Assembly: GCA_964016885.1 (NCBI GenBank)
Contig: OZ024744.1
Span: 36,394,001-36,458,000 of the forward strand
Direction: 5' to 3'
DNA length: 64,000 nucleotides
Origin: Eledone cirrhosa
Lineage: Eukaryota
The translations under genes were made by a program, and so were the position numbers. This document shows, in pieces, positions 411 through 63,016 of this stretch (position 1 is its first letter; each line of letters starts with the position of its first letter). The notes beneath the pieces are model-generated. The model was not told where the DNA came from, ran no database searches, and worked only from the letters and a program-made list of their open reading frames with translations.

Positions 411-584
411 CACGTCTCAGCCTCATTATGCTATTATTTATTCGTCTGTCCATTCTCCTTGTAACAAACATCTTTGGCTATTACATCTGCTTGCATTTTG
501 TACAGATTAATAGTATATATCCTATTAAATGGCGGAACAATATTGCTTCTATTTTGTTTATTTTTTGTTATTATTATTATTATT

Positions 585-766
585 GTGGATTGGCAGTATT
601 GGGAGAGGGTCGGACGCCATGCTTTGACGTATAGAGTTACGGCCCTTGCCATTCTGAGTTCAAATCCTGCCGAGGTTAACTTTGCCTTTCATCCTTACGG
701 GGTCGATAAAATAAAGTACCAGTAATGCACTGGGTAATTGCTGGCCTTGTGCCTAACGTAGAAACA
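585..766 (+). mobile_element. tRNA-derived SINE, copy 1, within (ATT)n
   Basis: A-box-like TGGCAGTATTGG, B-box GAGTTCAAATCC, central GCCTTTCATCCTTACGGGGTCGATAAAATAAAGTACC, 3' end GGCCTTGTGCCTAACGTAGAAACA followed by ATT repeats. Similar copies at 27301 and 36919. Confidence 0.85.
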
Positions 767-987
767 ATTATTATTATTATTGATCTGTTCGGACGTCCTT
801 TTTGCTCGCTCCCAGCAAGTCACTTTATTTGCCTGTTAAAATTATTTGTTGTTAAATATTTCTTGTTGTGTAGGTGATATAAGCCCTTAGACTTTGCCCT
901 GTGAAGGTGAAAGTAAAATATTTGGGCCTTTTGACCCAAATATTTGAACATTTTACTTTAAAAAAAAAAATTGTTTAAAAAAAAAAC

Positions 988-3057
988 ATGGCTGAGTCAC
1001 GCCCCCCCCCCCCCCCAGCAATATGTCTGATGTCGTCTGACAACGGCGTAAAAGTTGAGAGGAGGGTTACAAAAATTGTTACAACAGACACCACCACAAA
1101 CAACGTGAACAAAGACAACACTGAGAACACTAATTTCGAAAAGATTACCACACCAGCTACATCAATAACAGCGTCAACCAAAATACAGACAACAGAAAAA
1201 AATGACAACAAATGCAACAACGATATTAACACCACTAACAAGAAAATAAACAACGACAACACCAACAGCAACAATACAAATTGCACCGAAAACAACAGCA
1301 ACGGTGGCACCAAAAACACAACAAACTACAACATTGATAATAGCAACAACACCAACAACACCGTTCGTAGCAACAGCAACAACACCAACAACACCGTTCG
1401 TAGCAACAGCAACAACACCAACAAAAAGACCAGTAGCGACAGCAATAATGGTATCGCTAAAAAAGGGGCCACTTCTTTAGCAGATGTGGCCCGAAATATA
1501 GAAACAGTGCTAGCCATGAAAGGGATGGCAGTCGCAGGAGCCATGGTGTCGAGAAACGACAACATAGTTTCCCTGAAACCTCCACCCGATTTCTTCAAAG
1601 ACTGCGCACGGTGACTTACCGCACCGTAAGCAAAATGTCGCATCGGGTGGAGAGAGCCATGGAGGTTCAAATCCAAACGGCCTTGGGGCGCGTCTGGGCG
1701 CGGAAAACACACATCACCCGAGGCAAAAAGTACGGCACAATAGACGTACTTTTCGCCACCCACCAAGAGGCGAAGTCTCACTCTTTGGAAACCCTAAAGA
1801 GTGAGGAGATAGTCTTGGTGCCCTCCTACTGCGGGCAGAAAATTGTGAAGATCAAAGTAACCTAGGTCCCAACCGACGTGCCCATACATTGGCTGGCCGC
1901 GTCTGTACTGGCTGGAATCGAGGAGAAGACCACCATACGGCAAATACAGAGAATGGGAAGAGAGAACTGGTCAGGAATAGGCATGCAAATGCTAATACAG
2001 ACTGACCAGGAGTGCATCGAGGCCATCCCAGACCTCATAGACCTCGAAGAAGGGCTCCAACTTCCTATAAGCGTGGAAGGAAGGCGCCTAAAGTGCTATC
2101 TCTGTGGGCAGAAGGGTAACCTCAGGGTCTTCTGCCCGCAGAAGACAGCCAAGAAGAGGGCCCCCTCCTTCCGACGCCTGATCCGCTGCTACCAAAAGCA
2201 GGGCAGGCAACAGAGGCAGAAGAGCCTTCCATGGTAAGTAGGATGGCAACGTCCGTGGCACCGATAACAAGGCCACGGATAACTAAAGCAGCGGCAGCAG
2301 TGGCGGCAACACCAACAGTCACAGTAGCTACATCGGCGGTAAAATCGTCGCAGCAAGGTCCATTACCACCACCAACAGCAGTGTAGCTTATGCCCCTCCC
2401 GGACGCCGCGGGGTCCGAAATGGAGTGTGAGGTGGGAGGGAAGTGGCAAACGGTCTGCCACAAAAAAATAAAAAAGAAAAGAATCACTTAGATTCACCCT
2501 CCAAAATCAAACGCAGACAAAGAGGGGTAAAGGCTGCGAGGAGACTTGCAGCAACACCGCCACCACCAATATCACCAACACAAGCATCACCACCAACAAC
2601 AACCACACCACCATCACCAGAAACACCAACATCGCAAACACAACATAGCACACACACCCAACAGCAACAACAAGAAAACAGCAACAAAATCACCCCTCCC
2701 CCCAAAAAGTACACAGCCATAAACATGGCAAAAAGAGAACTCATACAATATATAAAGCAGCACACAGACATCACAGAAAAAAACTACTACACTCCACCAA
2801 CACCAAGAACTCTCCCGACAAACATAAGCATCATTGAAATCTCAATAGAACAGTACAAACCTTTAAAACAAAAATTCCCCAACGCAGCCGGAGACTTCAG
2901 AGGGTCTGTTACCAAGAGGATATACACTGACATCCTCTTGGAAACACCCATGACCAGTCAAAGGGTTCTACTGTCCCTTCACCACACGATCAAGGTAAGA
3001 GACCCTTTCTCACTTGCCCCGTTTCTAATCCAACATGGCCGTACTCAGAATAGGTAG
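988..3057 (+). pseudogene. Tx1 ORF1 (gag-like nucleic-acid-binding protein), disrupted
   Basis: Asn/Thr-rich N-terminus, middle region matching ORF1 of copy 3, knuckle CYLCGQKGNLRVFC, Pro/Thr-rich tail; several stops and frameshifts. Confidence 0.8.
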
Positions 3058-6000
3058 TATAAATGCACGTGGTCTGCTGTCATCTTGGAAGCAGGGTCAC
3101 CTGCTCAACGACCTCAGGTCACTAAACATAGATGTGGCGGCCGTCAGTGAGACCAGAATCTCCGAAGCAGAAGCCTTCGCACCGATCTTCGGCGGCTACG
3201 ATGTATACGCATCTCAAGCCGTCCAGGATCGGGGGGGATGGGTTGTCGTCCTTTTTCGGAGAGGCTTGGATCTCACCATACGGGCCATCTTCCTAGACCC
3301 AGAAGGTAAGTCGGTGGTGCTGGACGTGACAGGCAGCGAAGGCAATGCTTTCAGGCTAGTAGCCGTCCACGCCCCAACAGGGGCTGGACGGCCAGATTTT
3401 ATCAGACGTCTAGAGACCTTTCATGGAACGTCCCGCTCTTTAGTGTTAGTGGGCGACTGGAACGGTATCGTGGATGCACGCTGGGATAGTGTGGGGCTAG
3501 TGGATAGGGGAGGAGGGTGCAAGAGCCTCACCAACCTGCTCAAACGTTTTGAACTGTCTGACAGGTATCGACTGGGTCACCCGAATGTGCCAATGTGGAC
3601 ATGGACAAACCGTATCGGGTCATCCAGATCGTATCTCGATAGGGTATTCTGCAGAGAACTAGATAAGGCTAGTTTAAGTTGTCCACAATTTAAAATAGTC
3701 GACTACACAGACCACACATTTGTGATCTGTGAGATCGACATAGACAGATTTCATAGACAAGGGCCTGGTTACTGGAAGCTGAACGCGTCTTTCCCGGCGC
3801 GCAAAGCCAACAGAGACCGGATTAGCATATTAGTTAAGCGGGCGTTGACGGGTGCGGTCGTCAACAACAGGTGGTGGTTCGCCCTGAAAAGGGCAATTAA
3901 AGTAGAGTCGATTAGGTTTGCAAAGGACTAGTGATAGAGGAACATAGAGTAGAGGGAGAGCTAGTCAGAAGGCTAGAAGAGGCGTTTAGGACAGGCATCG
4001 CAACCGATGTGCTTGCGACGAATCGACCAATTCTTCAACGCAAATCATGAAGACTGCGTTGTCAAAGCTAGAACGTGTGCTCTAAGACACGATGGGACGA
4101 AAGCCATTCAATGGGCCCGGGTGGTGGTGGGGCGACGTGGCAACAAGTCCACAATTCGGTCTTTGCCTGATCAAAACGTTGCATATAAAGCAGCACACAA
4201 ACATCACAAAGAAAAAAAAAAACTACTACACCCCACCAACACCAAGAACTCTCCCGACAAACATAAGCATCATTGAAATCTCAATAGAACATTGCAAACT
4301 TTTAGAGCAAAAATTCCCCAACGCAGTTGGAGTCTTCAGACGGTCGGTTACCAAGAGGATATAAACCGACATCCTCTTGGAAACACCCATGACGGCTTTT
4401 CAACAGCACTTTGCTCAATTGTTCGGGAGCGGCGGCGGGCTGGATCGGTGTATGGACTTTGGTGCATACCTCGACGGACTGCCGCGGCTTTTGACGACCG
4501 CAGTGCAGGGCTGCGAAAAGCCGATAACAGCAGGTGAAATACGGGAAGCGATGTCTGACTGCACGAGGGGTAAATCGCCAGCTTTGGATGGTCTGCTCTA
4601 CGAGCTTTATGCGTATATGCCAGACTAGTTCGGGGGCTTCTTGGCAGATGTCTACTGCAACTGGCAGCAGAACAGGAGCATTCCCAGTATTGTGAGCCGG
4701 GGAGCCGTGGCGCTGCTGGGAAAAGACCCGAACAAGGGGACGTTATAGACAACTTCAGGCGCATAACTCTGCTAAACGCAGAGTTTAAGATTTTGGCCAA
4801 GGTGTTAGCAAAGAGATTGGTGCTTGTCGTCGGTGATCTGGTAGGAGAGGCGCAGTCATGCGCCATCTCGGACAGATCCATCCACGGCAACCTCCACCTC
4901 ATGTGATTCATCATAGAGAGGGTGGTTAAGGAAACTGGCCAGGGTGGAGCCCTGATCAACTTGGATCAATCTAAAGCATTTGATAGGGTCGACCATCGGT
5001 ACCTGGCTGCGGTCTTCGAGGTCGCCGGTTTAGGGCCCGTCTGCAGAGGCGTGATCGCTGACATGCACAGCGACATCTGCTCGATTGTGAGGGTGAATGG
5101 TCACATTTCGCAGCCGTTCAGCATCATGCGCTCGGTCCTCCAGGGTACTCCCCTCTCGTCCCTCTTGTACGTATTGGCTCTTGAGCCGTTACTACACAAA
5201 TTGAAGACGAATGGCGTGGGGGGGGATACGGGAGATCCGTGTCAGCATACGCCCACTACGTCACCGTGCTGGTGTCGAGCACCAAACACGTCCAGATGCT
5301 CGCCACCGCTCAAAGGAATACGAAGATGTGACAGGAGCAAAGATAAACCAGGAAAAGTCGGTGTGCTTGCAACTCGGCACCTGGAGAGGCACTGGACGGA
5401 AGGACCGGTTAAATTGCTCGGGGTCTGGTTCGGTTCGGACCTCCAGATGGAGAAAATCTGGAGTGAGGTGACGAGCAGGGTCGCCTCTCTCACTCAGAAA
5501 TGGGCCGAGAGAAGGCCGTCTCTGAAAGGTCGGGCGGAGGTGGTGAATGCGTACATAGCTTCCGTCATCCTCTACCACCTGACCGTTGTACATTGCCGCA
5601 GCCCAACTCTGACCAAAATGGAACGCCTTCCCTTCCGCTTTTTGTGGAAGGGACGTGCTCCCATGGTCAGACGATCCATTTGCTGTTAACACTCTGTGCG
5701 TGGAGGACTAGGCATGCCGTGGCTGATAATACACAAACATGCGCTGAGACTGCGATATCTCTGGTGCTTCCTCGAGGGTAAACAGGTGTGGTCGCCGTTT
5801 GCCAGACGCAATTTTCCCCAGCTCGTCTCCTTGACGGAGCTGCAGTCCTGGATCAGAAAAAGATCGAGGGATAGCGCTTGGAAGCTGGAATGTCTCCAAG
5901 CGCTCACCGCCCTCTACCGGTTGGGCACTAGTATCGGTGGAATATCCAGCTCGGCGTTCTATAGAGGGCTAGTGGAGGGAAAGAGCGACGACGTTGACGG

Positions 6001-6434
6001 GGAGACCCTGGGTGTCGAAGACGATCAGCTGTTCGCTCTCTTCAAGAGAACTTTCAGACAGGGGCCTATGGACAACTTTCAGAAATCCCTGGCCTCGCAG
6101 TGCTACCGGGGAGCGTTATCGGTTCGGGATAAGCTCTACAGACACGGAAGTGCCGTCAGCTGAGCCTGTCCGAGATGCGCGCAGGGCGACGAAACGGTCC
6201 TCCACGCACTCGTTCAGTGCCCGAGGATTGCTGACTTGTGGAGCTATGTCGAACATTTGCTGTCGCGTGTAGGACGAATCCAGTTATGGACTGAGTCTAT
6301 TGTGCAGATAGCCCCGCCATTCTCCTTTAATGAGGAGGAAGGGCTGGCAGTTTTCATCTGCCTGGTGGCCTTGGCGAAAGAGATTGTGTGGTGGACAAGA
6401 TTGAAAGGGTTGAAAATGGACAAGTTTCACTTGA
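3035..6434 (+). pseudogene. Tx1 ORF2 (APE endonuclease-reverse transcriptase), disrupted
   Basis: APE motifs SINARGL, VSETR, GDWN, SYLDR, TDH, GPGYWKLN; RT motifs GKSPALDG, ITLLNAEFKILAK, LDQSKAFDRVDH, QGTPLS; CPRC...ETVLHALVQC. Confidence 0.9.
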
Positions 6435-8000
6435 TTATGTACTCCCGCTACGTTGATGATATAAACATCGTAGTAAAAACACCCCCACCAGAGAACAGTC
6501 AGGAATTAGAGAAAAACACCATGGAAAGCATCCAGAAAATAGCTAACTCCACCCACCAGAGTATTAAAGTTACTATAGACTACCCAAGCAAACACCTCAA
6601 CCATCGATTACCTGTACTAGACACAGGGCTCTGGTTAGAAACCATTAATAACAAAAAACAAATCCTCCATTCTCATTATGCCAAACCCATGACTTCTAAA
6701 TACCTGATCCACCGAAACTCAGCTGTTTCGGATCACACCAAAATCAACATACTGATTGCGGATTTGGTACGGGTGATGAGGAACGTGTCCCGCATGTGCA
6801 ACCCCAAAGAACTAGAGATACCCATACAACACCTCATCCACCGTATGCAGTTCTCTGGTTACAACCTGAGAGATAAAATCAGAGTATATAGAGGAGCCAG
6901 AACCAAATGGGAAAAAATGTAAATAATGATACAAATGGGACCTGCCCCTTGTATAGGAGAACATTTTGGAATAGAATAGAACGAACTAGGAATAAGGTTA
7001 ATAGAATAAACTCATGGTATGATAGCAATAAATACCAGAGTGTAATATTCATCAATACAACCCCTAGAGGTGAACTGGCTTACAAATTTAGAAGGGCCCT
7101 AGATAAACTTAAACTAAATATTAAGATAGTGGAAAGACCAGGTACCTCCATAAAAATACTTATTAGTAATACATACCCTTTTCAAAGACCTCCCTGTATA
7201 GATAAGAAATGTATAATCTGTAAACTAAGCCCCCATATTAACTGTAAAACTAGAAACATAGTATATAGCCTAAGATGTACTGAAGGACAATGTAAAGATA
7301 AGAATATAGTGTACATAGGTGAGACAGCTCGTAGTATAGGGGAACGGTTAAATGAACACTGGCAAGACCTTCAAGATAGTAAAGAATCATCTGTACTCTA
7401 CCAACATGCTAAACTAGAACATAAGGGGAAATTAGAGAACATAGAAATAAAAATATAATCTACACACAGAAAAAACGCAATGTTTAGACAAATCCCAGAG
7501 GCAATAAACATAAATGAACTCCAACCAAATTAAATAGAAAACATGAATGGAATAGCAACATCACAACTTACAATTAAGGACAAAATGAAAACACACACAC
7601 ATAGAACAAACAACTAACTAGTAACATGTAAATAAACAAATAAATAAACAAATAAAAACACACACAGACACTCAGATGTAACACATACTCAAACTAAGCA
7701 CACAACACACACAAAAACAAGATGGCGTAGGACAGAACAAAGGAGAGGCAGAAAACCAAGAAAAGAACCCCGGTCACTGATGAGGTCACAGAATATGTGA
7801 CGAAAGAACTTTGACAATATATGAACAACGGTCCGTTGTGGAACCAACCAACCAACCGGAAATATATAAAAAAATTTAATTTATAATTTAACTCATAATA
7901 AATTGGAGTGTAACAACTGGTCCGTGTGTTTCTTATTGGCAAAGTATAACAATATCGGTTTCAACACACGTTTTCAGATAAAGAATCTTGCTAAAGAAAT
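6434..8000 (+). mobile_element. 5'-truncated Penelope-like element (RT C-terminal half, GIY-YIG endonuclease, 3' pLTR region)
   Basis: YSRYVDD, LPVLD, Cys linker CIDKKCIIC, NIVYSLRC...YIGETARSIGERLNEH; ends at (TA)n; second copy at 38671-39645. Confidence 0.88.
7773..7815 (+). ncRNA. Minimal type I hammerhead ribozyme motif in the Penelope 3' region
   Basis: gtca-CTGATGA-g-gtcaca gaata tgtgac-GAAA-g aa c-TT-tgac: core boxes, 6-bp stem II, very short stem III, stem I gtca/tgac. Confidence 0.7.
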
Positions 8001-19651: not shown

Positions 19652-24748
<5,097 letters not shown>

Positions 24749-24754
24749 GTTGTT

Positions 24755-25345
24755 ATACCTTGAATCTCAGTCATTGATGTTGGTTAACTGGAAAGTCCGT
24801 TGGAATGAATATCAAGCCACTACCTGCAGCCTCAGATATTCAGGACGTATCGGAGGGTTCTTGTTGTTCCAAGCAAGCATGCCTTTTGAAGCGTTCCAAA
24901 AAGCGTGAAGGGGCCGAATTTCTTTAACCATCCCTGGAAACTTTTGGAGATAGTCCCCAGTCCGCCTATGACAATCGGGATCACTTTGCCTTCATGGCAG
25001 TTCCAAATCCTTTTCACCTCCCACTTTAGGTCCTGGTATCGGTTAATTTTCTCCCTCTCCTTCTCTTGCACTCTCGTGTCGAAAGGGCAGGCCACATCCA
25101 CAATCAAACACGATCTTTTTTCTTTGTCCACAACCACCAGTTCAGGTCTATTGTGTTCCAGTTTTTTGTCCGTCTGTATCCTAAAATCCCACAGCACCTT
25201 CACCTGATTGTTCTCCATCACCGCCTCTGGCCTATGCTCATACCATTTCTCAGAATGTGGTAAATTGTTTACTTTGCACAGGTGCCAGTGGATCACCCTG
25301 CCCATCACATCGTGTCTCCAGCCCTTATAGTGGGTCTGGACTAGG
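24755..25345 (-). mobile_element. R4/Dong-like family B, 5'-truncated copy (RLE domain and 3' UTR)
   Basis: LWDFRIQTD..NRPELVV..IVDVACP..EKINRYQDL..PIVIGGLG; ATT arrays on both sides. Confidence 0.9.
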
Positions 25346-25377
25346 TTATTATTATTATTATTATTATTATTGTTGTT

Positions 25378-26233
25378 ATTCCTTGAATCTCACTCATTGA
25401 TGTTGGTTAACTGGAAAGTCCGTTGGATTGAATATCAAGCCACTGCCTGCAGCCTCAGATATTCAGGACGTATCGGAGGGTTCTTGCTGTTCCAAGCAAG
25501 CATGCCTTTCGAAGCGTTCCAAAAAGTGTGAAGGGGCCGATCTTCTTCAACCATCCCTGGAAACTTTTGGAGATAGTCCCCAGTGCGCCTATGACAATCG
25601 GGATCACTTTGACTTCATGGCAGTTCCAAATCCTTTTCACCTCCCACTTTAGGTCCTGGTATCGGTTAATTTTCTCCCTCTCCTTCTCTTGCACTCTCGT
25701 GTTGAAAGGGCAGGCCACATCCACAATCAGGCACGATCTTTTTTCTTTGTCCACAACCACCAGGTCAGGTCTATTGTGTTCCAGTTTTTTGTCCGTCTGT
25801 ATCCTAAAATCCCACAGCACCTTCACCTGATTGTTCTCCATCACCGCCTCTGGCCTATGCTCATACCATTTCTCAGAATGTGGTAAATTGTTTACTTTGC
25901 ACAGGTGCCAGTGGATCACCCTGCCCATCACATCGTGTCTGCAGCCCTTATAGTGGGTCTGGGCTAGGTGTTTACACTCGGACACAATGTGAGCCACAGT
26001 CTCCTCTCTCTCTCCACAGATCCTGCACAGTGGGCTAGCCTCCTCCTTGTAAATATGGTGCTTCAACCACTTCGTTTTGAGGGCCTGCTCCTGCGCAGCC
26101 ATTAGCATTCCTTCTGTAGCCTTTTTGAGGTCTCCTCTTCTCAACCAGTTCCATGTCTGTGGATCTCTAAATTCAGTTTTCTCAAAGAAGGTACTATGAA
26201 GGGATTTTCCCTTAAGGCTGCTCTTCCTCCTTG
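25378..26233 (-). mobile_element. R4/Dong-like family B, 5'-truncated copy (CCHC and RLE)
   Basis: AAQEQAL, CRICGEREETVAHIVSEC, RHD, NRPDLVV; near-identical to 24755-25345 and 63015-64000. Confidence 0.92.
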
Positions 26234-26518
26234 TTACACTCCTTATTCCTTACATTAAACTGCAAATATGTTGACACACTTTAAGTAACGCCTTCCTTGT
26301 AAAATTTGTGGTCTTGTTTTGCTTAACTAATGAATATTTCGAGCTCTGTGCACCTAATCTCTGCATGAACCCAGCCATCTAGCTGTCTTCCACTCCATAT
26401 TGCACATTGAGCCTTTACGCTTTTGGCTTCTAACGAATTCACCAATCTCTCTTCTCCTCTCCTATTTCCATCTCTCTCTTTAAGATTGGTTTACTCTTGA
26501 ACCGTGTATAAATATACC

Positions 26519-26549
<31 letters not shown>

Positions 26550-27300
26550 TGCACAAACATATACACACACATATATATATATATGTATATATATATACAG
26601 ACATATATATATATAAATATAAAGTGAAGATGGGCATTGTTTGGTGTTCCGAACTTGCATGCTACACCGTTCATCCAATTTTCATGAAACCTCACACATA
26701 TATAAAACTCAACACGTAGAGTGGAATAGGCTACTTGAAATTTTCGAAAAATCGATAATCGCGCCCTATGACAGAATGTTTTTCGATTCAAATGAAATTT
26801 TGTGTGAATTCGAACACAAGAACTCTTATTTTACATCTGGCGCAATAAAAATAAATTCCATATGCCCATATAAGGACGTGCGTTATTGATTGGACGGCCA
26901 GCTGCATGTCTTCCCAGCTGTCTCAGTAAACGACCGACCATTAAAGAGTTTATCTTTTCATATTCCACCTTATTCAAGTGGAAATACAGTATTATCCCTA
27001 TTCGAAAAGGGAACCAATTTAATGGTGTCTTTTGTGAGTAAATTTTCAAACAGTCTTAAATAATCATTCTTTTTGAAAAAAAAAATTATTAAATAATACG
27101 TTGACCAAGTTGTATCGTACACATACAAAGTTGTAAAAAATGTTACGTCCGTACCAATGTTTTCCTTTTTTAAACAAAAGGTTCTAAAAAATTACTTAAT
27201 TTATAATACTACTGTTACACTCTTTTGCACAGGAAGTGAGTAACATTTCGGGTGTTTAAACGTAAGTTCACCAGGGTTTGTGTCTTCATTATTAACCCAC

Positions 27301-27481
27301 GGTGGATTGGCAGTATCGGTAGAGAGTCGGACGCCATGCTTTCCAGCATAGTTACATCCCTTTACGATCTGAGTTCAAATCCCGCCGGGGTTGACTTTGC
27401 CTTTCATCCTTACGGGGTCGATAAAATAAAGTACCAGTAATGCACTGGGTAATTGCTGGCCTTGTGCCTAAAGTAGAAACA
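27301..27481 (+). mobile_element. tRNA-derived SINE, copy 2, with 13-bp TSD
   Basis: TSD ATTATTAACCCAC at 27288-27300 and 27482-27494; B-box GAGTTCAAATCCC. Confidence 0.9.
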
Positions 27482-27872
27482 ATTATTAACCCACATCTAA
27501 TGGCATTTTTTTGTTCTGCTTACGACTAAATGTTATGAGCGTATTTGCAATTAATTGCGCACACGTGCACACCTGCATGCAGATAGACACAGACAGCCAA
27601 TAAAAAATCGATAACTTGCTTATTAAGATATCGGTCAAAAAGAGAGATTGAATGTACTTTAGAACATTTTTTGAATATATTGTTCTTTTTGGCATGATAT
27701 GTCAGAAATATAGCTACTATACACTTTGGTTATTTTTTGTAACTAAAAAACGGTTCCTTTTGGGTGGATACTTAACGAGAAAAATCCTAGGGTTTTGGAC
27801 AAGTTTGTTTCAGGCGCTGTATAGACGCCTATTTTCTCACACCTTGGTCACGAATTCGTATTCTTTTCCAAT

Positions 27873-28253: not shown

Positions 28254-31200
28254 ATGCCCACACGGAAACGTTCAAGACTTACCTCCAAAAAAGGTACAGC
28301 TACTGCTTTGAGACAACGAATTAGGCGTTCTCAGGTATGAGTTCATTCACAATTGATTAATCCTTTATGCAATATTCTCCCTTAATGTTAGCAAGTACTG
28401 CGTTTATCCTAACTGTCACCACTGTTAAGCAACTACAACATTCTAATCGTAGTTATATTAAATTTATTGTCTTACCTTGATTCCCTTTTGTTCATGTTAG
28501 ACTTTTCTCATTTACTATTGACACTGCCATTGGCTTAGCTAACCAGTAGAATTAATTAATTTTCTCTAGCAAACACCTGCTGAGCGCGAATCTCGACTCG
28601 CTGATAGACGTCTTTCCCGGCTGGTTGAGTCACCAACATCACGTACGACAAGGCTTGCTGATGTTCGCCTTCGTCGCCAACATGCGCTGGCGGAGGAATC
28701 ACCAACATCCCGTCAGACAAGGCTTGCTGGGGTTCGCCTTCATCGTCAACAAGCACTTGCAGAGGAGTCCACGGCAGACAGAGACAACAGGCTTGCTGAT
28801 AAGCGTTCCCGGCATACGTTAACTACTACTACCAAGAGCACAGACTGGGTAAAAGCAGCCTTCAGATATAACCCCTCTGAGGATTACGGACTTCTGCCTA
28901 CAATTTCCATCGGTAAAATGGATAATGTCTGTACATCCTGCAACGCAATGAAGTGGCCAGGCGAGGCGCCTTCTATGTGTTGTGCAGGAGGTGAGGTGCA
29001 ACTAGGAGCATTGGCTGACCCGCCATACGTTCTTCTGAATCTACTTACAGGTGACGACACTACGGCTACAACGTTCCGCCGTAACATGTGGAAATACAAC
29101 TCCTGTTTCATGATGACCTCCTTTGGTGTAGACAATAACAACACCAACAACAGCGTGAACCCCAACAACAACGTTTTCACTACATTCAGACTTCAATGCC
29201 AATGCTACCATCGCATGGGTAGTCTACGTCCGCGTCCAAATGAAGAGCCAAAGTTTCTGCAGGTTTTCTTTTTGGGTGGAGGTGAGGCCGAGATTGACCA
29301 ACGCTGTAAGTTAAACGAGGGTGTAGATAGGCGAATAATAGCAGGTCTGCAGGCAATGCTCCATGTGACTCATCCCTACGTTCACGATTTCAAGTTTGCC
29401 TTGGGACAAATTGAAACCACGCCGAACCTCAAGGTGATTATAAGGGCTGACAGGCGACCAGCTGGCGAGCATGCCCGTCGTTTCAATGCACCAAATACCA
29501 ATGAGGTGACAGTGATTTTGGTTGGCGAGGAGCACGGTAAACGCGATATTGTCCTTCAGCACTGTGACAGTCGGCTGATGTTTGTCACAGAGACACATAG
29601 ATCTTATGATTGCCTTCAGTATCCTCTTTTATTCCCCCACGGAGAGGACGGATACAATTTTGCTCTTCGTCATGTAAATTATTCCAATGGTAGTGAATCA
29701 CGGAAATCCATTTCATGTATGGACTTTTATGCCTACCGCTTTATGGTAAGGAGTAGAGATTTTAATCAGCTTCTTCGATTCAGGCAGCTGACGAATCAAT
29801 ACATTGTGGATATGTTTGCCAAAATCGAGGCCGAACGTCTGCTCTTTATTCGACTCAACCAAAAGAAACTGCCTGCGGAGGAATACATCCATTTACAGGA
29901 CGCCCTGATTCGTGATGGCTATGCCGGAAACGTCGGACAACAGGTGATCCTTCCATCAAGTTTCACAGGATCCCCTCGGTATATGCACCAAAGAACTCAG
30001 GATGCAATGTCTTATGTTCCTAAGTTTGGCAGGCATGATCTTTTCATCACCCTCACTTGCAATCCAAAATAGGAGGAAATTCAAACCTACCTCTTCCGGG
30101 GCCAGGTGAGTAGTAACAGGCACGACCTCATAGCCAGAGTCTTCCAGCAGAAACTCAAGAAATTGATGTGGCTACTGAAAGACGGCAAAATATTTGGTGG
30201 TCTTAATGCATGGATGTATACCGTGTAGTGGCAGAAGCGGGGACTACCACATGCTCACATCCTTATATGGTGCAAGGACAGGATACGGCCAACATTATTT
30301 GCGCAGAACTGCCCAATCCGCAAACCGATGTGGAATTGTTCAAAACCGTGAACAAACAATTGATGCACGGACCCTGCGGCGCCCTTAACTTTAATTCACC
30401 TTGCATGGAGAATAACAAGTGCACTAAAATGTTTGCACGACCTTTTACACGGGAAACACGCACAGGGATCGACGGCTATCCTATCTGCACGGGCAGGAGA
30501 TTGTCCTCGACAACAGGTGGGTGGTACCATATAACCCTCTTCTTGCCAAGATTTTTAATGCTCACATCAATGTTGAGTCATGTACGTCGGTGAAGAGCAT
30601 TAAGTACATATGCAAGTACATAAACAAGGGAGGGGATATGGCTGTCATTGAACTCCAAGGTGGCAGGGCACAACCTGATGAGATACAGCAATATCAAATC
30701 GGCAGGTACATTTCATCCAATCAGGCGATTTGTAGGATTTTTGGTTTTGACATTCATCAGCGTTCACCAACAGTCGTAAACTTGAATATTCACTTGGAGA
30801 ATGGGCAAAGAGTGTACTATACTGACGAAACCGCCAGCCGCGTTGTGGCCAACCCACCTGCAACAAAATTAACGGCTTTCTTCCAATTGTGCCAAGAAGA
30901 TCCGTTTGCTAAAACGCTTCATTATGCCGACGTCCCAACCTACTACACCTGGGCACATAATAAATGGACCAGGCGCCGACAGGGAGCACGCGTTCACGTG
31001 AACGGAGAAGACGTTTTGAAAAGCGATGCCATCGGGAGGGTGTACACAGTGCATCCAAATTACCATGAGTACTTTTATTTACGTATGTTGCTGCACAGTG
31101 TTAGGGGTCCTACTTCTTTCACTGAGCTACGGCGCATCAATGGCAAACTCTGCACTACGTATAGGGAGGCATGTGCCAAACTTGGACTCTTGGAAGATGA

Positions 31201-32949
31201 CGCTCAATGGGATCAGACTCTGGAGGAGGCTACTGCCTTCAAAGCACCAATTCAACTGCGCCAGCTGTTTTCGATCATGCTGATGACATGCGGTTTGAGT
31301 GACCCCTTAAAGCTTTGGGAGGCACACAAAAACAGCATGGCCGAAGACTTCCTCCACCGACTTCTACGTCAGGACCCTACGGCTGGGTTTGAATATAATT
31401 CTGCTATCTACAACGAGGCCTTACTCGACCTAGATAAACGAGTCCAAGCAATGGGAGGTCAGGGCGTCGCTACCTTCTGTTTGCCCCAACCACAGCAATC
31501 ATCCAGTTCATTAAACATCGAGTACATGCGCGAGGTTAGCTACGACCAGGTGCATTTGGCAGTTTATGTACAGCTCAACGAGCCTCGACTTTTGTCAGAC
31601 CAGAGGACTGCCTACAACATGATAATCTCCAGTATTGACTGCAAAGCGGGAGGTATTTTTGTTCTTGATGCTCCGGCGGGAAATAGCAAGACCTTCGTCA
31701 TCAACTTGCTTCTGGCTAAAGTTAGGCAATGCGGACAAATTGCTTTAGGAGTGGCCTCCAGTGGCATAGCGGCAACCCTGATAAATGGCGGTCGTACAGC
31801 CCATTCATTATTTAGGCTACCCTTAGATTTATCCAAGAGGGAAACGCCCACCTGCAATATCAGTCGCAGCTCGACAAAAGGCAAAATTCTGAACGAGTGC
31901 AACCTCATCATTTGGGATGAAGCGCCAATGAGCCATAAAGGCGCCTTTGAGGCTCTCGACTGTACCCTTCAGGATCTTAGGCACAATACACGGCTTATGG
32001 GTGGCGTGACAGTTTTGCTTGCTGTGGATTTTCGACAGACCCTTCCTATTATTTCGAAAGGAACAAGGCAGACGAGGTGAACGCAAGCATCAAGTGTTCC
32101 TACTTGTGGCAAAATATAAAAACGATGCATCTTACAACTAACATGAGAGTCCATCTTAGTGGTGATGAAGAGACCACGGTGTTCTCCAGGCAACTATTGG
32201 AAATAGGCAATGGCACTATAGTTGGCGAAAATGACGGTGCTATATGTCTTCCGTTTGGGCATGTTGTACCTAAAGCCGAAAATCTCATGTCAACGGTGTT
32301 TCCTTACCTACCCAGAAATTACACTGATCCCGATTGGCTGAAGCAGCGCGCAATCTTAGCGCCGAAAAATTTCACTGTGGATGCATTAAATTTTAGACTC
32401 CTAGAACAACTCCCTGGTGATTCCATCAGTTACAAGTCCATAGACTCTGTTCCCAACACGGACGAGGCGGTGCATTACCCGGTTGAATTTCTAAACAGCC
32501 TTACACCACAAGGACTTCCCCAGCATAACTTGCTACTTAAAAGAGGCTCTCCAGTTATGCTGTTAAGAAACTTAGACCCTCCGAAACTTTATAACGGAAC
32601 GTGGCTGACCATTAAGACCATGATATCAAAAGTCTTAGAGGCTACTGTCTTAAATGGACCAACCAGTGGTGAGGATGTCTTCATACCCAGAATACCGCTC
32701 ATTCCATCTGATATGCCCTTTCAGTTTCGACGACTGCAATTTCCATTGAAATTAAGCTTTGCAATGAGCATTAACAAGGTGCAAGGGCAGTCATTACAGG
32801 TGGTTGGCTTAGAACTTTCTGAACCTGTTTTTTCACATGGCCAGTTGTATGTTGGGTGCTCAAGGGTCGGGAGTCCAGAAAGCCTCTTCATCCATGCCCC
32901 TGAGGGCAAGACACAAAACGTCATCTACCATGAGGCGTTAGAGAATTAA
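28254..32949 (+). pseudogene. Helitron RepHel (HUH Rep plus Pif1/SF1 helicase), two predicted exons, few lesions
   Basis: Zn motif CTSC..MCC; Rep motifs FITLTCNP, WQKRGLPHAHIL, YICKYINK; helicase DAPAGNSKT, GGRTAHS, IWDEAPM, FRQTLP, RLQFPLKLSFAMSINKVQGQSL, HGQLYVGCSR. Predicted intron 28335-28569. Confidence 0.93.
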
Positions 32950-35002: not shown

Positions 35003-36918
35003 CATTTACGTATCGAGAGAGAAAAAAAGGAAGTATAGGTGATACATGTAGTTATTTGCCAAATAGCCTGTGCAGAAGGTGCTCAATACTAGTGCCGGCA
35101 GTGTTAAATATTAGAAGTGTTAATATTTAGTGGGCGAGAGAATTAGCAGGGCGTAAGCACGAGGAAAAGTAAGAAATAGGAGAACAGACCGTTAATACAT
35201 GTTTATTTAAAACAGCACATACGTACGTTTCGCCCGGATGGGCTTCTCAAGGGCATAAATAACTAGTGTTCCTTACATGGCCCGGAAAGTGTTTTTGGAG
35301 GTAAGTTCACGTCAGAGTTCTTCGAAAAAAAAGCGTGTTTTGATTTTGCAGTAGGTCAAGGGAGGTAACTTAGGCCGGTGTTAGGGTAGTCTTTCCGGGA
35401 CAAATTTTTTATCCGTTACAAGATCTGATTACAACCTTACCATTGTCGATACGCACAGGGTCAGGTAAGCAACGTTTGTTTTGAGACGTTTGTTTTTCTG
35501 CACCTGTCCGCCCGGGTCATTTGAAGCTGGGTCTGGGATGCATGGTTAGTTTCCGCCGGGGTGTTAAAGCTTGTTGCAGGGAGACCCGGTATACGGTTTC
35601 ACTCCTCATCCTTAGCCCATCTGAAGAAGGATATTTTTAAGCGATGTGTACAGACTATCGTCGTTTCAGCTCTGCTGTTGATGAGCTCGTAGGGTGTCGT
35701 TATGATGTAGTAGACCTCCATGAGGCAAAACTCGCACATCCTCTTGAAGTTGTACGGTGCAACCCTGCCGACAATATCCCAGTGCGTGGAGAAGCTGATG
35801 TTTAAGTCTTTTAATGATATGATGTAGTCCGCGAGCGAAGTGGAGTGTCTTAATTTCTTATTTGCCTCCAACCACTCTAAGCAGACTCTCAACTCCATAG
35901 TCTATAGCATCTCACATAGGATCTCGAGGCTCTCCGCCAATGAGGATATCTTCAACCAAGCGGCAGATTACTATAATAGGGCCTTGATAAGCGCTGGCTT
36001 TAATCGAGGAATTTCCTACATCACTAACGCTAGCTCCAGAACCCCCCCCCCCCTCGCAAGACGAACGTTATAGTAAGCCATACCTATAACCGATCACGCG
36101 GCGACTTCGTAGGAGTCGGATATAATAGTATAGATAATCGCATTAAGGAACACGGCCGCAAAGTTAATTACACTGGCGATGGTATAGGTAACTTACCACA
36201 CAATAAAGATCACGACCCCGGTGACAGGGACCACTGTAGCCTACTCGAATTATTCCCCTACTATAAAATCAACAAAGGCGACGGCCTACTACCAACGCCT
36301 TCCAACCAACATCTTCCTGTACATAAACATAGAAGAAGGAAGTAGAGTGCACCCGAGCAAACAGTGAAAGGGGCACGTAACGAGCTACAGCACATTAACA
36401 TGCATAAGAACGGTCACCTTGATGGAACCACCCGTAGCAAACGTACAAGGACACGTAACCGCCACTGTAACGTCCTATGATTTCATCCCTCCTACTCTCG
36501 GAGTGTGGCCTCCAACATACCCCGGATATTCTTCGAAGCCTTAGAGAAGAACATCCCACCCAACCATAGGTATAGAAAAATCCTTAATAGGAACAATATA
36601 AAAATATCCTTCTCTACTACTCCTAACCTAGCAGACATAATAGGAACAACTAATCACAGTAAGTTCACCTAGACACAACACCTTAGCACAGACGCACCAA
36701 CACCTGGCAATAACTATATCGGCCTTAACGACTCCCTTGCAGCATCCAATATTGCTGGCAACAGCCCCTACAGACGCAACCAGCATAACCGTGACATGAC
36801 TGGGGAACATGCAGGACATGGCGTGCGGAATAATAATAGTACCACCCCGCGCACAGTGGGGTATAATGGTGCTAAGGACAGGTGCGGGGGCGTAGGTAAC
36901 AACGTAGATAGCAATAAT

Positions 36919-37137
36919 TGTTTCTACTATTGGCACAAGGCCAGAAATTACCCAGTACATTACTAGTACTTTATTTTATCGACCCCGTAAGGATGAAAGG
37001 CAAAGTTAACCTCGGCGGGATTTGAACTCAGAATAGCAAGGGCCGTAACTCTATGCATCAAAGCATGGCGTCCGACCCTCTACCGATACTGCCAATCCAC
37101 CGCCAATCCACCAATCCACCAATACTGCCAATCCACC
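36919..37137 (-). mobile_element. tRNA-derived SINE, copy 3, nested in the Penelope element with a 17-bp TSD
   Basis: TSD ACGTAGATAGCAATAAT at 36902-36918 and 37138-37154; reiterated 5' end. Confidence 0.9.
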
Positions 37138-38670: not shown

Positions 38671-39645
38671 GTTGCCAATAAGAAACACACGCACCAGTTT
38701 CTTTCACTCCAATTTATTATAAAAAAGAAAAAAAAAAAGAAATTTCCGGTTGGTTGGTTGGTTCCACAACCGGACGGTTGTTCATATATTGTTAAATTCT
38801 TTGGTCACACATTCTGTGACCTCTTCAGTGACTGGGGATTCTTTTCTTTGTTTTGTGCCTCTCCTTTGTTCTGTCCTACGCCATCTTGTTTTTGTGTATG
38901 TTGTGTGCTTAGTTTGAGCATGTGTTACGTCCGGGTGTCTGTGTGTGTTTTTATTTGTTTATTTACATGTTACTGGTTTGTTGTTTGTTCTATGTGTGTG
39001 TGTTTTCATTTTGTCCTTAATTGTAAGTTGTGATGTTGCTATTACATTCATGTTTTCTATTTAATTTTGGTTGGAGTTCATTTATGTTTATTGCCTCTGT
39101 GATTTGTCTAAACATTGCGTCTTTTCTGTGTGTAGATTTTATTTTTATTTCTATGTTCTCTAATTTGCCCTTATGTTCTAGTTTAGCATGTTGGTGGAGT
39201 ATTGATGAATCTTTTCAATCTTGAAGCTCTCGCCAGTGTTCATTTAACCATTCTCCTATACTACGAGCTGTGTCACCTATGTACACTATATTCTTATCTT
39301 TACATTCTCCTTCAGTACATCTTATGCTATATACTATGTTTCTAGTTTTACTGTTAATATGGGGGCTTAGTTTACAGATTATGTATTTATTATCTATACA
39401 GGGAGGTCTTTGAAAAGGGTATGTATTACTAATAAGTGTTTTTATGGAGGTACCTCGTCTTCCACTATCTTAATATTTACTTTAAGTTCATCTAGGGCCC
39501 TTCTAAATTTGTAAGCCAGTTCACCTCTAGGGGTTGTATTGATGAACATTACACTCTGGTATTTATTGCTATCCTAGCATGTGTTTATTCTATTAACCTT
39601 ATTCCTAGTTCTTTCTATTCTATTCCAAAAGTTGGTCCCTTATAT
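38671..39645 (-). mobile_element. Penelope-like 3' fragment (GIY-YIG region and pLTR), same family as 6434-8000
   Basis: Reverse complement aligns with ~6950-7942, including the hammerhead motif at ~38790-38835. Confidence 0.88.
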
Positions 39646-41245: not shown

Positions 41246-41717
41246 TATTTCAAAAGGAAAATTCAGTGATCAAGTGCGATATCATTCTGAGTGATAATCT
41301 GGATTACTGTTCCTTTCTTATGAGGAAAGCAGAGACTATCTTTTAGAGATTAGCACCAAAGATTAAGTAGGCCATTCCTAATGAATCAAGGTGATTTCTA
41401 GATCGTTTCTAATTATTTAATTAATAATTAAAGTAAAAAATTATCTTGGTTGTCTTTAGGTCATTCTTGTGTTATTCTAAATCTATCCATGAAAGAGCTA
41501 GGAATGACCATTCCACATGCCAGTGCCGAAACGCTGGCACAGAAATGCCTGCACCGAAACGTCCTGTTCCATGCCATCTTAACAACCTTCACCTCCTTGT
41601 GATTAAGTGTGATGTCATAGGCTTATTTAATTCATCAAATTCAAATTCCAGCTTCAATATTTTAAGAGTTAATTCTACTTGTCCTGTACTTTTCCAAGTG
41701 TATTATTATTTAAGAAT

Positions 41718-41744
41718 GCTGGCCTTGTGCCTAAAGTAGAAACA
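41718..41744 (+). mobile_element. 27-bp SINE 3'-end insertion with 16-bp TSD
   Basis: GCTGGCCTTGTGCCTAAAGTAGAAACA flanked by ATTATTATTTAAGAAT (41702-41717 and 41745-41760); absent from the opposite arm of the inverted repeat. Confidence 0.88.
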
Positions 41745-42204
41745 ATTATTATTTAAGAATATTAATACACATGCGCCCGCATTTTTCGGTCTAATCCCCC
41801 CCTTTTTTAAGGCATTGCCGCAAATTATTTTATTTAAATTACCTTGACCATTTGCTAAGGCATTTACAATCCTTTTTTCATCAATAAAAATTAATTTTTC
41901 ATTTCAATATTTTTATAAAATCCAAAATATTAAAATTGAAAAGGTATTTTGTAGAATATAATCAATAGAGACATTTTCCTTTTCTGAACACCCTTACTAC
42001 AAGCCTTCAGGTGTGCCCATAGAGACAAAGCTATAATAGACTATACTCTAATGATCAATTTAGAGTTTAACTTAACAAGTGAAGTTATTAAAGAGGCTAG
42101 AAAAACAAGCAGTTAAAATAACTGAGTCAAAAATAAATAAAATTAAGCAGTAAATACATAAAATGCCAATAAACAGTGAGCTCAAATTCAACAATAATTT
42201 GTCC

Positions 42205-42439: not shown

Positions 42440-44360
42440 CTAAATTGTTTCCATAAACAATACAATCACATTAGGTAACTTAGGAGGAAATTTATTGTGC
42501 CTTTTTTTGATAATGTTGTCACTAATTTCATCCCAATTTTCAGCACCACTTTTTACCAGACAAGTATAATGGCCTGCCGTAGATGATACTCCTTCATGAA
42601 GAATAGCAGCTTTTAATGTGAAATTTGTGCCATATATTTACTGCCCTTTTGAGCTAAAGTTCATAATATCACAATTAATTCTTTGTTCTCCTTCATTATT
42701 AATCAAAACTCTACTAATTGAGATGACAAGATATTTGAAATCGTTAGTAAATTCAATTCTTGAAGTTATTTGATGCTCAGTGTTTTCAGAACAAGTATCA
42801 CAGTATTTAGTCAAAGTATTTGTTGTTGAAAGTAGAGATTTAAATTGTTGTGTGCCATTAATAGGATTTAATATCAAATCCTCTTTTATTTGAAATGGAA
42901 GTTCAGATTCTATACCACATCCAGGTCTTGAATTACAATTGCAAACATTGTTATTTAAAGCTTGGCAATTTGTTTCATACAATCGGATGCATCTAGTATG
43001 ATCAGTTTGAATAAATTGAAGTTTTTCTCTAAATACCAAGTCCAAAATTCATGAGCACATTGCTTATTTCCATCAAGAAATCTTCCTCCAATTATTCTTC
43101 TTAAGTTAGAGACATTATTATGATTATTAAAAATGATATTGCTTAATTCTTGATGTACTCCATTCATGTTGTTAAAATTATGCAAATTGTACAAATTCAG
43201 GCAATTGATTCAGTGATTGCACAACTGAATTTGCAAAACAAGTATTTCTTTGGTTGGTCAATTGATGTTTAGGGATTAAAGTTTGGCTGTTTTCATTTCT
43301 TTTCTTCTTTTTGGCAGGTTGGTTTGAATTTTCTTCCAAATTAAGTCTTTTAGTTCATTTCTTGGGCATGCTAGAAGCATTTGCCATGCAAGGATGCTTT
43401 TTCCTGCAAGGTGGCAATGGAGGCAAATCTGCTCTTCCAGTACTAGCCCGTAGTTTGTTGTACTCTTCCCATGCAGATTTGTCAACCATGATCAATGATC
43501 TTGGATCAAAGTCACAGAGATACACATTGCAAAGTTTTCTGGCTCTTGAAAGAGCCACATAAGCTTGACCATCAGAAAATATCTGATTTCCTAAATCAGC
43601 AATTATTCCATCCACAGAAATTCCTTGTGATTTGTGAATTGTTATAGAGTAAGCAAGAGACAATGGAAATTGTGTTCTGGTGACAAAAACACCAGGAGAA
43701 ATTTCATAGTCTGCTTGAACTCTTCCAATGGAAATGGATTTGTCCTTTTTGGTATCAAAAGACACCAACATTTTGTCACATTGCTTCCATTCCCAATTAA
43801 TTCAATAACTGTTCCAATAACACCATTGCATAAGCCTTGATCTACATCAATGTTTCGTTTCAACATCACTCTTGCTCCAATTCCAACATTTAGCAAAGTT
43901 TCTAGTCCAGCAGTATCAGAAGTTTTCTTGTTTTTGCCTTTTTCAACATTTTTCTTTGTTCTTCCATTTACTTGTCTCATACCAGAATCTTTTGCAGCAA
44001 GTTTCACTGCATTTATGTTGCATTTTTTAATCATTTCATTATTCAACTCATCAACAGCTTCATTCAAAGGTAAAATGCATACAAAATTTAATTCAGGAAT
44101 AGAATACAATTCAATCAATTTTTTAGCAATTTCTTCGACAGATGCTTTTCTATCAGTAAATAGGCATCTTTTTTGAAGAATGCTAATATCAGAGTCTGAT
44201 GAGGAACCAATCCTAGTTCTTCCAAAATATCAACATAGTTGTCTTTGTCTTCTATTTGTCTCATATTAATGGTTAGCTCATCATATTGAAAGTATTTCCA
44301 CAATGAATGCCCACTAATGCCAATTTCTGTTTTTTTGGCCTCATATGATGAAATTCTCGA
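42440..44360 (-). pseudogene. 5'-truncated Helitron/Helentron-like Pif1 helicase fused to a C-terminal USP (peptidase C19) domain
   Basis: Helicase: LWKYFQYDELTINMRQ, GARVMLKRNIDVDQGLCNG, RTQFPLSLAYSITIHKSQG, GQAYVALSRA. USP: LTNQRNTCFANSVVQSL, KQCAHEF, CDTC, AILHEGVSSTAGHY, WDEISD. Confidence 0.85.
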
Positions 44361-47700: not shown

Positions 47701-47786
47701 CAAAACCCACATCGTACCCTCCTGTACCGTCCTGTGCCGTCTGTAATGTTTTCTTGATGTCAGCCCTTGTGGCCAATAAATAAATC
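44742..47786 (+). mobile_element. Tx1-clade LINE, copy 2 (5'-truncated, 3' end present)
   Basis: APE C-terminal half, RT (GKSPGLDGLP, YSDD) and degenerate CCHC; ends GCCCTTGTGGCCAATAAATAAATC then (ATT)n. Confidence 0.92.
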
Positions 47787-47801
47787 ATTATTATTATTAT
47801 T

Positions 47802-52170: not shown

Positions 52171-52204
<34 letters not shown>

Positions 52205-58027: not shown

Positions 58028-58045
58028 ATCATTATTATTATTGTT

Positions 58046-61000: not shown

Positions 61001-62933
61001 CCGATGCATAATAGAGATGATTTAAATCAGTAATGTTTAGTTTGTTTGTGATGATAATGTTTTTGATAATTATGTTAGTCTTGTGTATTATCTTTTGGTT
61101 CTGTTTGGAGTTCTGGATCTTAGGGAGGGTGTCTCGTTCCCCCATGTCAGATTCTTTCATTTTCATCCATTCGATCATAATTTCATCCTTCAAGTTGGCA
61201 CGTTCATTCTCATTCATTTCTTTATCATTTACGATCTCATTGTTTTCATTTTGAGTTTCATCTTGAGCATGCACTCCCTCCACTTTTTCGACCCTTTCTT
61301 TAATTTGTTCTGTTGTCAGTGATTCCGCCCCAACCCTGGGATTCGAAGTGTTACAATTTACCTCGTTTTCACTGACACATGTTTCATTTTCCCTTCGCTG
61401 ACTTTGTGCTAATAGCTTGATCTGATCAATTTCTATATCAGTTAGTAACTTTTTTTTAACAATATTTCTTCGTATATTGGCTAGTTTGTTACTGTCAATA
61501 TAGCCTCTGTTTTCGGGATGTTTCTTTTTCCAGTTGATATATGTCTGTTCTGTATTCGATGTATTTGATGGGTAGTACATGGCAGTGTAGAAAGCCTCAA
61601 GGATGTCTTTATTATCTTCCCTTGACCCTTTTTCTCTCTTTTTATTTGGATTTCTTGGTTGTGAGCATGGAGGGCCAATAGTAGGAGTATTTCGGTTATG
61701 GGAGGTCTCCAGCTCCGAAGTGATGGGAAGGTTTGAACCATTAGCTGATTTTTCGACCCCAGTCTGGTTCCTCTCTGAGGGACGCGGCCCTTTTTTACCC
61801 GGGTGACGGCCGAACCGGTATGAGATTTTATCATTAGACATTTACTTTATTTTGTCGCGTTTTATCCTTATCCGCCAAGGGGTAATCATTTCGTGTTACC
61901 ACTTCTAGAACGAGTGTCAACCAAGACTAGAGGGGTCGTTCTCCCCTAGAGACACAGGTATTCCCCGCCGGCCGCCATCCCGGTATTTCTTGGTCACGGG
62001 GTTTACTTTTTTGTTGTTTTTTTAAAATTGTTATTATCATGAGTGGTTCCTTAATGTGAGCATTGCGTGGCTTAAGAATGAAATTATTAATAATTGTCTT
62101 CACTCCAGGCACAAGGCCAGCAATTACCCAGTGCATTACAATAATATAATATACTTTTTGCTGAAGTTGCCTGTTATTGTTGTTGGCTATATCGGTGGTG
62201 GTGCTGGGGATTTTTCTATTGTTGGTGGGGAAGGGGGGAGCCAGCAGTACCATAGTCGCTGACGTTTGGCCGGTAGCCGGGTCACTGAGTCAATCTATTT
62301 ATATCTTTTGCTAGCCTCTCCCTTGTCTAGTGATACCGCCACCTTCCCCTTTCTTAAGTTAACAGGGGAATAGTGGGGGTAGCAATGAAGGAGTGGTGGC
62401 GGCGGTGATGGGATAGTGGTTGCAATGATGGATGGAGTGGTGGCGGCGGTGGCGTTGTCGTTACTGAGTTTTGTTGAATGGACTAGTTTTTTTTGATATG
62501 TAGTATCTATGCGTTTGTGTCGCGTATGTTTAATACATGTGTTGACATATTCTATTAATATTGGAATTAAACATTTTGTTAAAACTTGAGACAATAATAA
62601 TAGTAATTATTATTATGATGCTGGGATTGGTGGTGGTGGTGGTGAAATTGCCGTTCTCTGGCTGTTGTATTTAGTGTACACAGCGGGGTGATGGGGTAGG
62701 TGGTGTATCTAGTTTCTGGTGTTGGTGAAATTGCTGTTATTTGGCTGTTCTATATAGTGTAGACAGAGGGATTTTCTTCCATTTATAATCATTTTCTTCT
62801 TTGAATATAAAATGTATAATACAAAATTGAATATTTGAGCGATATAACAATATATTATGGAACCGAATTTTTAAGAGACTTGATTCGGTGCTTTATGCAT
62901 CATTTGTACTTAGAATTGTTATTTCACAATTGA
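58046..62933 (-). mobile_element. R4/Dong-like family A, copy A2 (lacks ~75 nt of the 5' end)
   Basis: Colinear and highly similar to 19652-24573; disrupted ORF 61841 to 58191; (ATT)n at both ends. Confidence 0.93.

Positions 62934-63014
<81 letters not shown>

Positions 63015-63016
<2 letters not shown>

Follow-up and report, generated by a model that had tools for sequence, protein, structure and literature searches.

A hairpin-bearing 3' tail common to an abundant SINE and ATT-targeting Tx1 elements in Eledone cirrhosa

Introduction

The eel elements UnaSINE and UnaL2 are a stringent SINE/LINE pair with a common 3' stem-loop. The eel pair is cited in PMC3747384, and the bivalve elements BivaV-SINE2 and BivaCORE-SINE1 are described as pairing with CR1-14_CGi through a 3' stem-loop (PMC4824008). 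Like these systems, the SINE studied here ends in the same terminal repeat as a LINE, its tail is probably homologous to the LINE 3' end, and it has a stem-loop in which some changes may be compensatory. It differs from them in that the candidate partner belongs to the L1 clade (Tx1), the common region is only about 22 nt long and the stem has 3-4 bp. SINEs with L1-clade tails are known from maize, where ZmSINE2/3 go with LINE1-1_ZM, and from Chlamydomonas, where SINEX-3_CR goes with L1-1_CR (PMC3472496). These pairs also have a common L1-clade LINE/SINE 3' end, and the maize hairpin has a conserved loop and a variable stem, but they come from plants and an alga, end in poly(A) and have a longer common region, whereas our case concerns an animal, a target-specific Tx1 element and a microsatellite tail. 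Only three L1-clade-tailed SINEs, in plants and a green alga, came out of a survey of 58 SINE/LINE pairs (PMC3472496), and whether stringent recognition is ancestral in the L1 clade is a question left open there (PMC3472496; PMC3747384).

In animals, the crocodilian SINEU has been tied to Tx1-Mar by a common target preference (PMC4494074). That SINE has an snRNA head and the link is one of target preference, to which tail homology and a hairpin are added here; the text of PMC4494074 gives no match for 'stem' or 'secondary structure'. The Kibi and Koshi Tx1 elements of the same paper also insert into microsatellites, theirs being (TC)n or (TTC)n and ours (ATT)n and (TATC)n, as far as the descriptions set them apart. 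For octopuses, OR1/OR2 SINEs and MetaSINEs are named in PMC4824008 and PMC5804259, and according to the former the partner LINEs of MetaSINEs are not known. Among the LINEs of Octopus vulgaris, RTE, R4/Dong-like, CR1, Tx1 and Hero-like elements are given as recently active (PMC13282606), and the same five classes are found in the genome studied here. In a comparison with MetaSINEs and OR1/OR2, motifs had no match in the searchable supplements of PMC4824008, PMC4758252 and PMC3472496. The full-text literature that we searched contained no animal SINE with a Tx1-shared tail, no cephalopod SINE/Tx1 pairing and no Tx1 3' stem-loop; such a pairing may still be recorded in Repbase Reports, in Dfam or in subscription papers such as the one of 1994 on octopus SINEs.

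The SINE and the Tx1 elements

The window is a stretch of 64,000 nt from contig OZ024744.1 of Eledone cirrhosa, and its features are collected in Table 1. The searches extended to 3.0 Gb of genome. The SINE shows several features of a tRNA-derived SINE: it is short, multicopy and without an ORF, has a simple-repeat tail, and occurs with target duplications and 5' truncations. Its head has the two box-like motifs of Table 1; ARAGORN and Rfam gave no match in the window. Core and tail probably resemble those of octopus SINEs. In 800 kb taken at round genome coordinates we counted 106 SINE tails and 15 ends of Tx1-A, B or C, the former giving a density of about one SINE copy per 8 kb, or roughly 4x10^5 copies. 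A longer and more diverged form of the SINE (n=40) often ends in GAAATC or GAAACC, as does Tx1-A. In several loci (L018, L009, L133 and L170) SINE copies stand in tandem or nested, each in the ATT tail of another.

Table 1. Features of the window; positions are counted from its first letter
Feature	Position	Strand	Remarks
ATT array 5' of the SINE, its target site	568-584	+	
Short-form SINE, young subfamily	585-766	+	39 other copies at 97-99% identity
A-box-like motif of SINE	590-602	+	assigned from tRNA-promoter consensus
B-box-like motif of SINE	656-667	+	assigned from tRNA-promoter consensus
Central core of SINE	684-722	+	
SINE 3' hairpin	743-753	+	GGC-CTTGT-GCC
SINE spacer	754-766	+	13 nt, ends GAAACA; 13 nt in 232/246 copies
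SINE ATT tail, also target of Tx1 copy 1	767-781	+	
Tx1 copy 1	782-6427	+	endonuclease ORF 3029-3931, RT piece 4907-5689
GIY-YIG (Penelope-like) element	6428-7942	+	
R4/Dong-like stack	19652-26236	-	AAT tails; SINE 3' fragment 23680-23734
Second SINE copy	27302-27481	+	13-bp duplication 27288-27300 / 27482-27494, begins ATTAT
Helitron Rep/PIF1 helicase ORF	28570-32949	+	
Third SINE copy	36913-37100	-	with target duplication
Related GIY-YIG copy	38672-39630	-	
SINE 3' fragment, 27 nt	41718-41744	+	hairpin and spacer only; perfect 16-bp duplications 41702-41717 / 41745-41760
Helitron Rep/PIF1 helicase ORF	43642-44229	-	
Tx1 copy 2, subfamily A	44744-47801	+	hairpin 47763-47773 (GCC-CTTGT-GGC), AATAAA, ATT tail 47787-47801
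Tx1 copy 3, subfamily B	52203-58042	+	RT and zf-RVT ORF 55909-57774, hairpin 58003-58015 (AACC-CTTTT-GGTT), tail 58028-58042
R4/Dong-like stack	58043-64000	-	AAT tails; SINE 3' fragment 62085-62139

Two of the three Tx1 copies of the window are altered at or near the 3' end. Copy 1 lacks the hairpin because a GIY-YIG element replaces its 3' end from about position 6428, and copy 2 has an internal deletion of about 290 nt ahead of its 3' end. The Tx1 ORF2 carries an AP-endonuclease, a reverse transcriptase (RT) and a C-terminal zinc motif (Pfam Exo_endo_phos, RVT_1 and zf-RVT). It scores 357 bits against a U2-inserted, Keno-like element and 186 bits against human L1 ORF2p. In the RT tree it forms one clade with that Keno-like element (support 96/98), apart from CR1, RTE and R4; the tree holds neither a named Tx1 nor human L1, and the clade assignment is therefore indirect. 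The reference itself is a metagenome relative of Tx1 that sits in a U2 snRNA gene (L366:4530-4671).

Four Tx1 subfamilies were sampled, the ATT-targeting A, B and C, with 46/47, 44/49 and 25/25 ends anchored, and E, which has a TATC tail and whose ORF2 C-terminus is about 60% identical to that of the others. Their hairpins are AGCC-CTTGT-GGCC in A, AACC-CTTGT-GGTT in B, GGCC-CTTGT-GGC(C/T) in C and GCC-CCTGT-GGC in E. At least three ATT units adjoin 29 of 30 Tx1 5' ends, and subfamily E lies in TATC repeats. TATC-tailed, TATC-targeting copies (L441-L470, L190, L183, L013 and L178) retain the 3' hairpin despite the other target repeat. Loop variants CTAGT, CTGGT and CTTGT suggest that there are further subfamilies.

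A common 3' tail

The three 3' motifs on which the earlier note was built are all present in the window (Table 1). Its statement that they have an identical 13-nt spacer is right for the length, which is 13 nt from the 3-bp stem to the ATT or ATC tail in all three, but the spacer sequences differ and subfamily C has one nucleotide more. The loop had been given as CUU(G/U)U. The CTTTT form is peculiar to copy 3; in the family of this copy, 40 of the 44 anchored ends carry CTTGT. A stem of 3-4 bp with a CTTGT loop, 16-17 nt ahead of the tail, is found in most of the 246 distinct SINE copies with a 3' end and in the three ATT-targeting Tx1 subfamilies. The loop itself is present in 217/246 SINE copies, a set picked at up to two hairpin mismatches and so biased to conservation.

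We asked how specific this arrangement is. Evenly picked sequence of 800 kb holds 1358 ATTATT starts. A CTTGT hairpin with a perfect 3-bp stem stands 15-17 nt upstream of 50 of them, and every one of these 50 is the end of a SINE (44) or a Tx1 (6). Profiles were made from the last 30 nt of the SINE in a short-form and a long-form version. Their scores (short/long) were 13.7/18.1 for Tx1-A, 14.3/19.5 for C, 4.5/9.5 for B and 19.0/17.8 for E, and within the window 10.1/14.8 for copy 2 and 1.2/7.4 for copy 3, against a background mean of -13.7/-9.4 (1274 sites), in which the top five short-form scorers resemble decayed SINEs. The best tail score belongs to Tx1-E, which targets TATC and not ATT; this counts against the ATT-targeting subfamilies as partner. 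Nine non-Tx1 ends from seven groups all scored -3.1 or lower, and among the LINE ends scored only those of Tx1 lie above background.

The similarity had been thought too short for BLAST, but blastn with word size 7 matches the SINE and Tx1 tails inside the window (E=0.003), in an alignment that takes in the ATT tail. Before the tail, the window SINE has 14/22 nt identical to copy 2 as well as to copy 3 and 17/22 to Tx1-E, and the long form has 17/22 identical to Tx1-A. Because 14-17 of 22 nucleotides are identical, the sequences point to a tail captured from a Tx1 ancestor, and they do not support the idea that the SINE mimics a signal of structure alone. Conservation in the long form is 81-99% at the hairpin positions but 54-65% at three positions in the middle of the spacer; it is at the place of these three that Tx1 has its AATAAA.

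Insertion sites

Among 90 random SINE copies, 38 have a duplication of at least 8 bp, compared with 99 of 600 mismatched control pairs. Duplications of at least 10 bp at the tail start occur in 99/246 copies, with a median of 16, and 92 of them begin with ATTAT. For full-length random SINEs the duplication of at least 10 bp is seen in 22/39 and ATTAT upstream in 29/39. Tx1 duplications are mostly unresolvable within ATT arrays, and automatic calls of 5' junctions are noisy; the two informative ones (L056 and L465) are about 16 bp long and begin with ATT, on the same strand as those of the SINE. The elements are also nested in both directions: 12/30 Tx1 5' ends lie in SINE tails, and SINE sequence comes directly after 16/92 Tx1 3' ends. 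The mutual nesting indicates that both overlapped in time.

The tail similarity, the target-site duplications, the mutual nesting and the failure of all other sampled LINEs support the earlier proposal that a Tx1 lineage mobilises the SINE. We consider it likely, from these sequence comparisons, that ORF2 protein from the ATT-targeting Tx1 subfamilies copies the SINE in trans. Whether the hairpin is the signal that the Tx1 enzyme recognises, beyond the ATT repeat and terminal bases, is in our judgement evenly balanced.

The hairpin as a possible recognition signal

Stem pairs 1 to 3 are paired in 43/46 ends of A, 43-44/44 of B, 23-25/25 of C and 29/30 of E, so the hairpin is conserved across Tx1 copies. 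In the SINE, pairs 1, 2 and 3 are kept in 232, 235 and 240 of 246 copies and a fourth pair in 116. At pair 3, subfamilies A, C and E have G-C, whereas 44/44 ends of B have A-T. At pair 2, Tx1 has C-G where the SINE has G-C; either a swap or the loss of one C-G pair from the stem of subfamily C would account for the SINE pair. On an 11-row alignment RNAalifold predicts this stem alone, with a covariation term of -0.46. The covariation score was reached by 4 of 500 shuffles and the signal was lost on sliding the partners, but the rows are related and independent covarying changes number only two or three.

A covariance model built from 19 Tx1 ends, the check that had been suggested for the structural signal, did not detect SINE tails significantly. 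It missed the window SINE at E<=10, and in 100 kb it recovered 6 of 50 SINE tails among 18 non-Tx1 matches, the best at E=0.19 and none significant. A sequence-only model recovered 1 SINE tail among 40 non-Tx1 matches, although scores from the two modes can be compared only loosely.

A partial alternative keeps the same partner and changes the signal. Tx1 would move the SINE by relaxed recognition of the AUU repeat, perhaps with terminal bases, and the hairpin would be a passenger or serve 3'-end processing of Tx1 beside AATAAA. We regard this as somewhat less probable than recognition of the hairpin, but as the most serious competitor. The predicted stem is weak, at -1.0 to -5.1 kcal/mol alone. 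It is predicted in the last 40 nt of 62/85 short and 7/8 long SINE copies, but folds of the whole SINE give it a probability above 0.5 in only 3/85 short and 0/8 long copies, where an upstream helix, favoured by a median of 2.6 kcal/mol, is predicted to capture the 5' arm of the hairpin. The paucity of compensatory events and the possible derivation of the SINE stem from that of subfamily C by a single lost pair point the same way. So do distant Tx1 relatives (22-35% identity): in 40 loci read out of 80, many of which were incomplete, a comparable hairpin ahead of AATAAA was absent; the hairpin would therefore be lineage-specific. Relaxed recognition does not readily explain why the stem is kept across subfamilies that differ so far in ORF2 and in target repeat, or why the SINE retains stem, loop and distance but not AATAAA. 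Moreover, CCTTGTG stands ahead of an ATT start at 83 sites, of which 79 belong to SINE or Tx1, and the SINE tail also forms the end of two of the remaining four.

In a 206-nt context the hairpin is predicted to form in 34/41 Tx1-A, 40/43 B and 7/18 C ends. The short-form SINE can also form alternative helices in the models (window positions 718-745 and 736-768), one of which would hide the 5' arm of the hairpin while another would join the bases before the hairpin to the tail junction. A comparable helix to the tail junction is predicted in Tx1-A and B folds.

Other LINE families

LINEs were surveyed by sampling, with RT and endonuclease searches and a random sample, the best 150 candidates being scored per family search. 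The clade names other than Tx1 are assigned from protein motifs together with the RT tree. The 3' ends of about ten families were compared with the SINE tail, and none, the RTE and CR1-like ends included, matched it better than Tx1. Three CR1-like families end in TTGAA, GAAAT and ATCAAAGTT repeats, an I-like family in CAA repeats (20 of 150 matches examined) and RTE in GAT repeats, while the AAT tails of two R4-like families lie on the other strand. Hero-like elements and another I-like element (L351) are present without a scored tail. An RTE-like ORF carries a PHD finger directly after its RT domain and is followed by a GAT-repeat tail (L196:1701-4808 and L194:2050-4137), and a SINE-like sequence with a GAT-repeat tail occurs in L160 and L174.

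It is unlikely, though less so than the two candidates discussed after it, that the true partner is a LINE outside our sample, such as another Tx1/L1 lineage or an I, RTEX or Proto-type element, inserting at dispersed ATTAT sites. The SINE does have looser targets than Tx1: at least three ATT units occur in 38/45 Tx1 tails and 12/90 random SINE tails, the SINE accepting shorter ATT runs. Its distribution over contigs is different too, as the four largest contigs, which make up 54% of the genome, hold 33/40 best Tx1-B matches and 14/40 best SINE matches. Its youngest copies also look younger, with a median pairwise identity of 98.3%, compared with 95.6% for Tx1-B (one pair at 99.5%) and 93.2% for Tx1-A, these sets being the best matches to a query. 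All three differences count against Tx1 as the partner as well. The limit of 150 candidates per search leaves room for such an element. On the other hand, the driver of so many copies should be visible, and when the sequences preceding ATT in 800 kb were clustered, the recognisable tail families were SINE, Tx1 and CR1. Patterns for hybrid ends led to SINE copies, to scattered matches or to nothing. A search for LINEs carrying exactly the stem of the SINE gave 41 pattern matches, of which 30 loci were read (29 SINE, one unclear), and a second pattern gave 0 matches; a Tx1 end with the last six bases of the young SINE gave 39 scattered matches. Contigs of three runs compared with Tx1 and SINE ends yielded nothing decisive.

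Mobilisation by a very young CR1 family through its ATT tail is highly improbable. This family, the only other ATT-tailed LINE found, ends in ATT repeats after a different hairpin of its own and is the youngest sampled. CR1 is moreover a common SINE partner (PMC3747384; PMC4824008). Its tail scores of -19.9/-11.5 are nevertheless at or below the background mean, and ATTAT is found at the 5' junction of 0/21 of its 5'-truncated copies, against the 29/39 given above for full-length SINEs. The family shows no target duplication, three apparent ones being TA repeats, and the target signature thus largely refutes it as the partner. Taken together, four CR1-like families part from the SINE by tail and one by insertion signature. 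The family has an intact 945-aa frame in many copies and a median identity of 100% (L091-L120 and L231-L260), and from its sequence it is probably recently active.

R4/Dong-like elements, which insert in the same microsatellite arrays and whose 3' ends follow 20 of 92 Tx1 tails, are the least credible movers of the SINE, since their coding-strand tail is AAT, opposite to the ATT of the SINE, and their tail scores are -11 to -22. The stacks in the window lie on the strand opposite to Tx1. Both long copies, 94% identical, hold the same SINE 3' fragment, which may either be carried by the family or belong to a duplicated block.

Proposed mechanism and implications

Target-primed reverse transcription is established for L1-clade elements. 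Under mobilisation by Tx1, the SINE RNA would recruit the Tx1 ORF2 protein through its captured tail, with the protein binding the small hairpin. The Tx1 endonuclease would nick the strand reading ATAAT, the AUU repeat of the SINE RNA would anneal at the nick, and reverse transcription would be primed about 16 nt downstream of the hairpin. Second-strand cleavage about 16 bp away would then give the duplication. That the hairpin positions the enzyme is suggested by the distance of 16-17 nt, which stays fixed while the stem bases, AATAAA and the target repeat change. The SINE tail may have lost AATAAA after its capture, as a pol III transcript would not need this signal. The looser targets might be explained, as a guess, if a short SINE tail needs less annealing than a Tx1 transcript running through a long array.

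More broadly, we tentatively propose, with the balance slightly against us, that in an animal Tx1 lineage the RNA 3' end is recognised stringently, by way of the hairpin, that this was kept across subfamilies that switched target between ATT and TATC, and that a 22-nt module suffices for the several hundred thousand copies of the SINE.

SINE/LINE pairing is seldom seen in the L1 group. A pair of an animal Tx1 and a SINE with a 22-nt tail makes a small and directly testable case, for which the natural stem variants are ready controls. The pairing would explain why SINE, Tx1 and R4-like elements are stacked and nested within ATT arrays, and it proposes a driver for a SINE present at such density. 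If the broader proposal is true, an L1-type enzyme of animals would have a stringent signal of minimal size, and the motor of a dominant SINE in an octopus-like genome would be identified.
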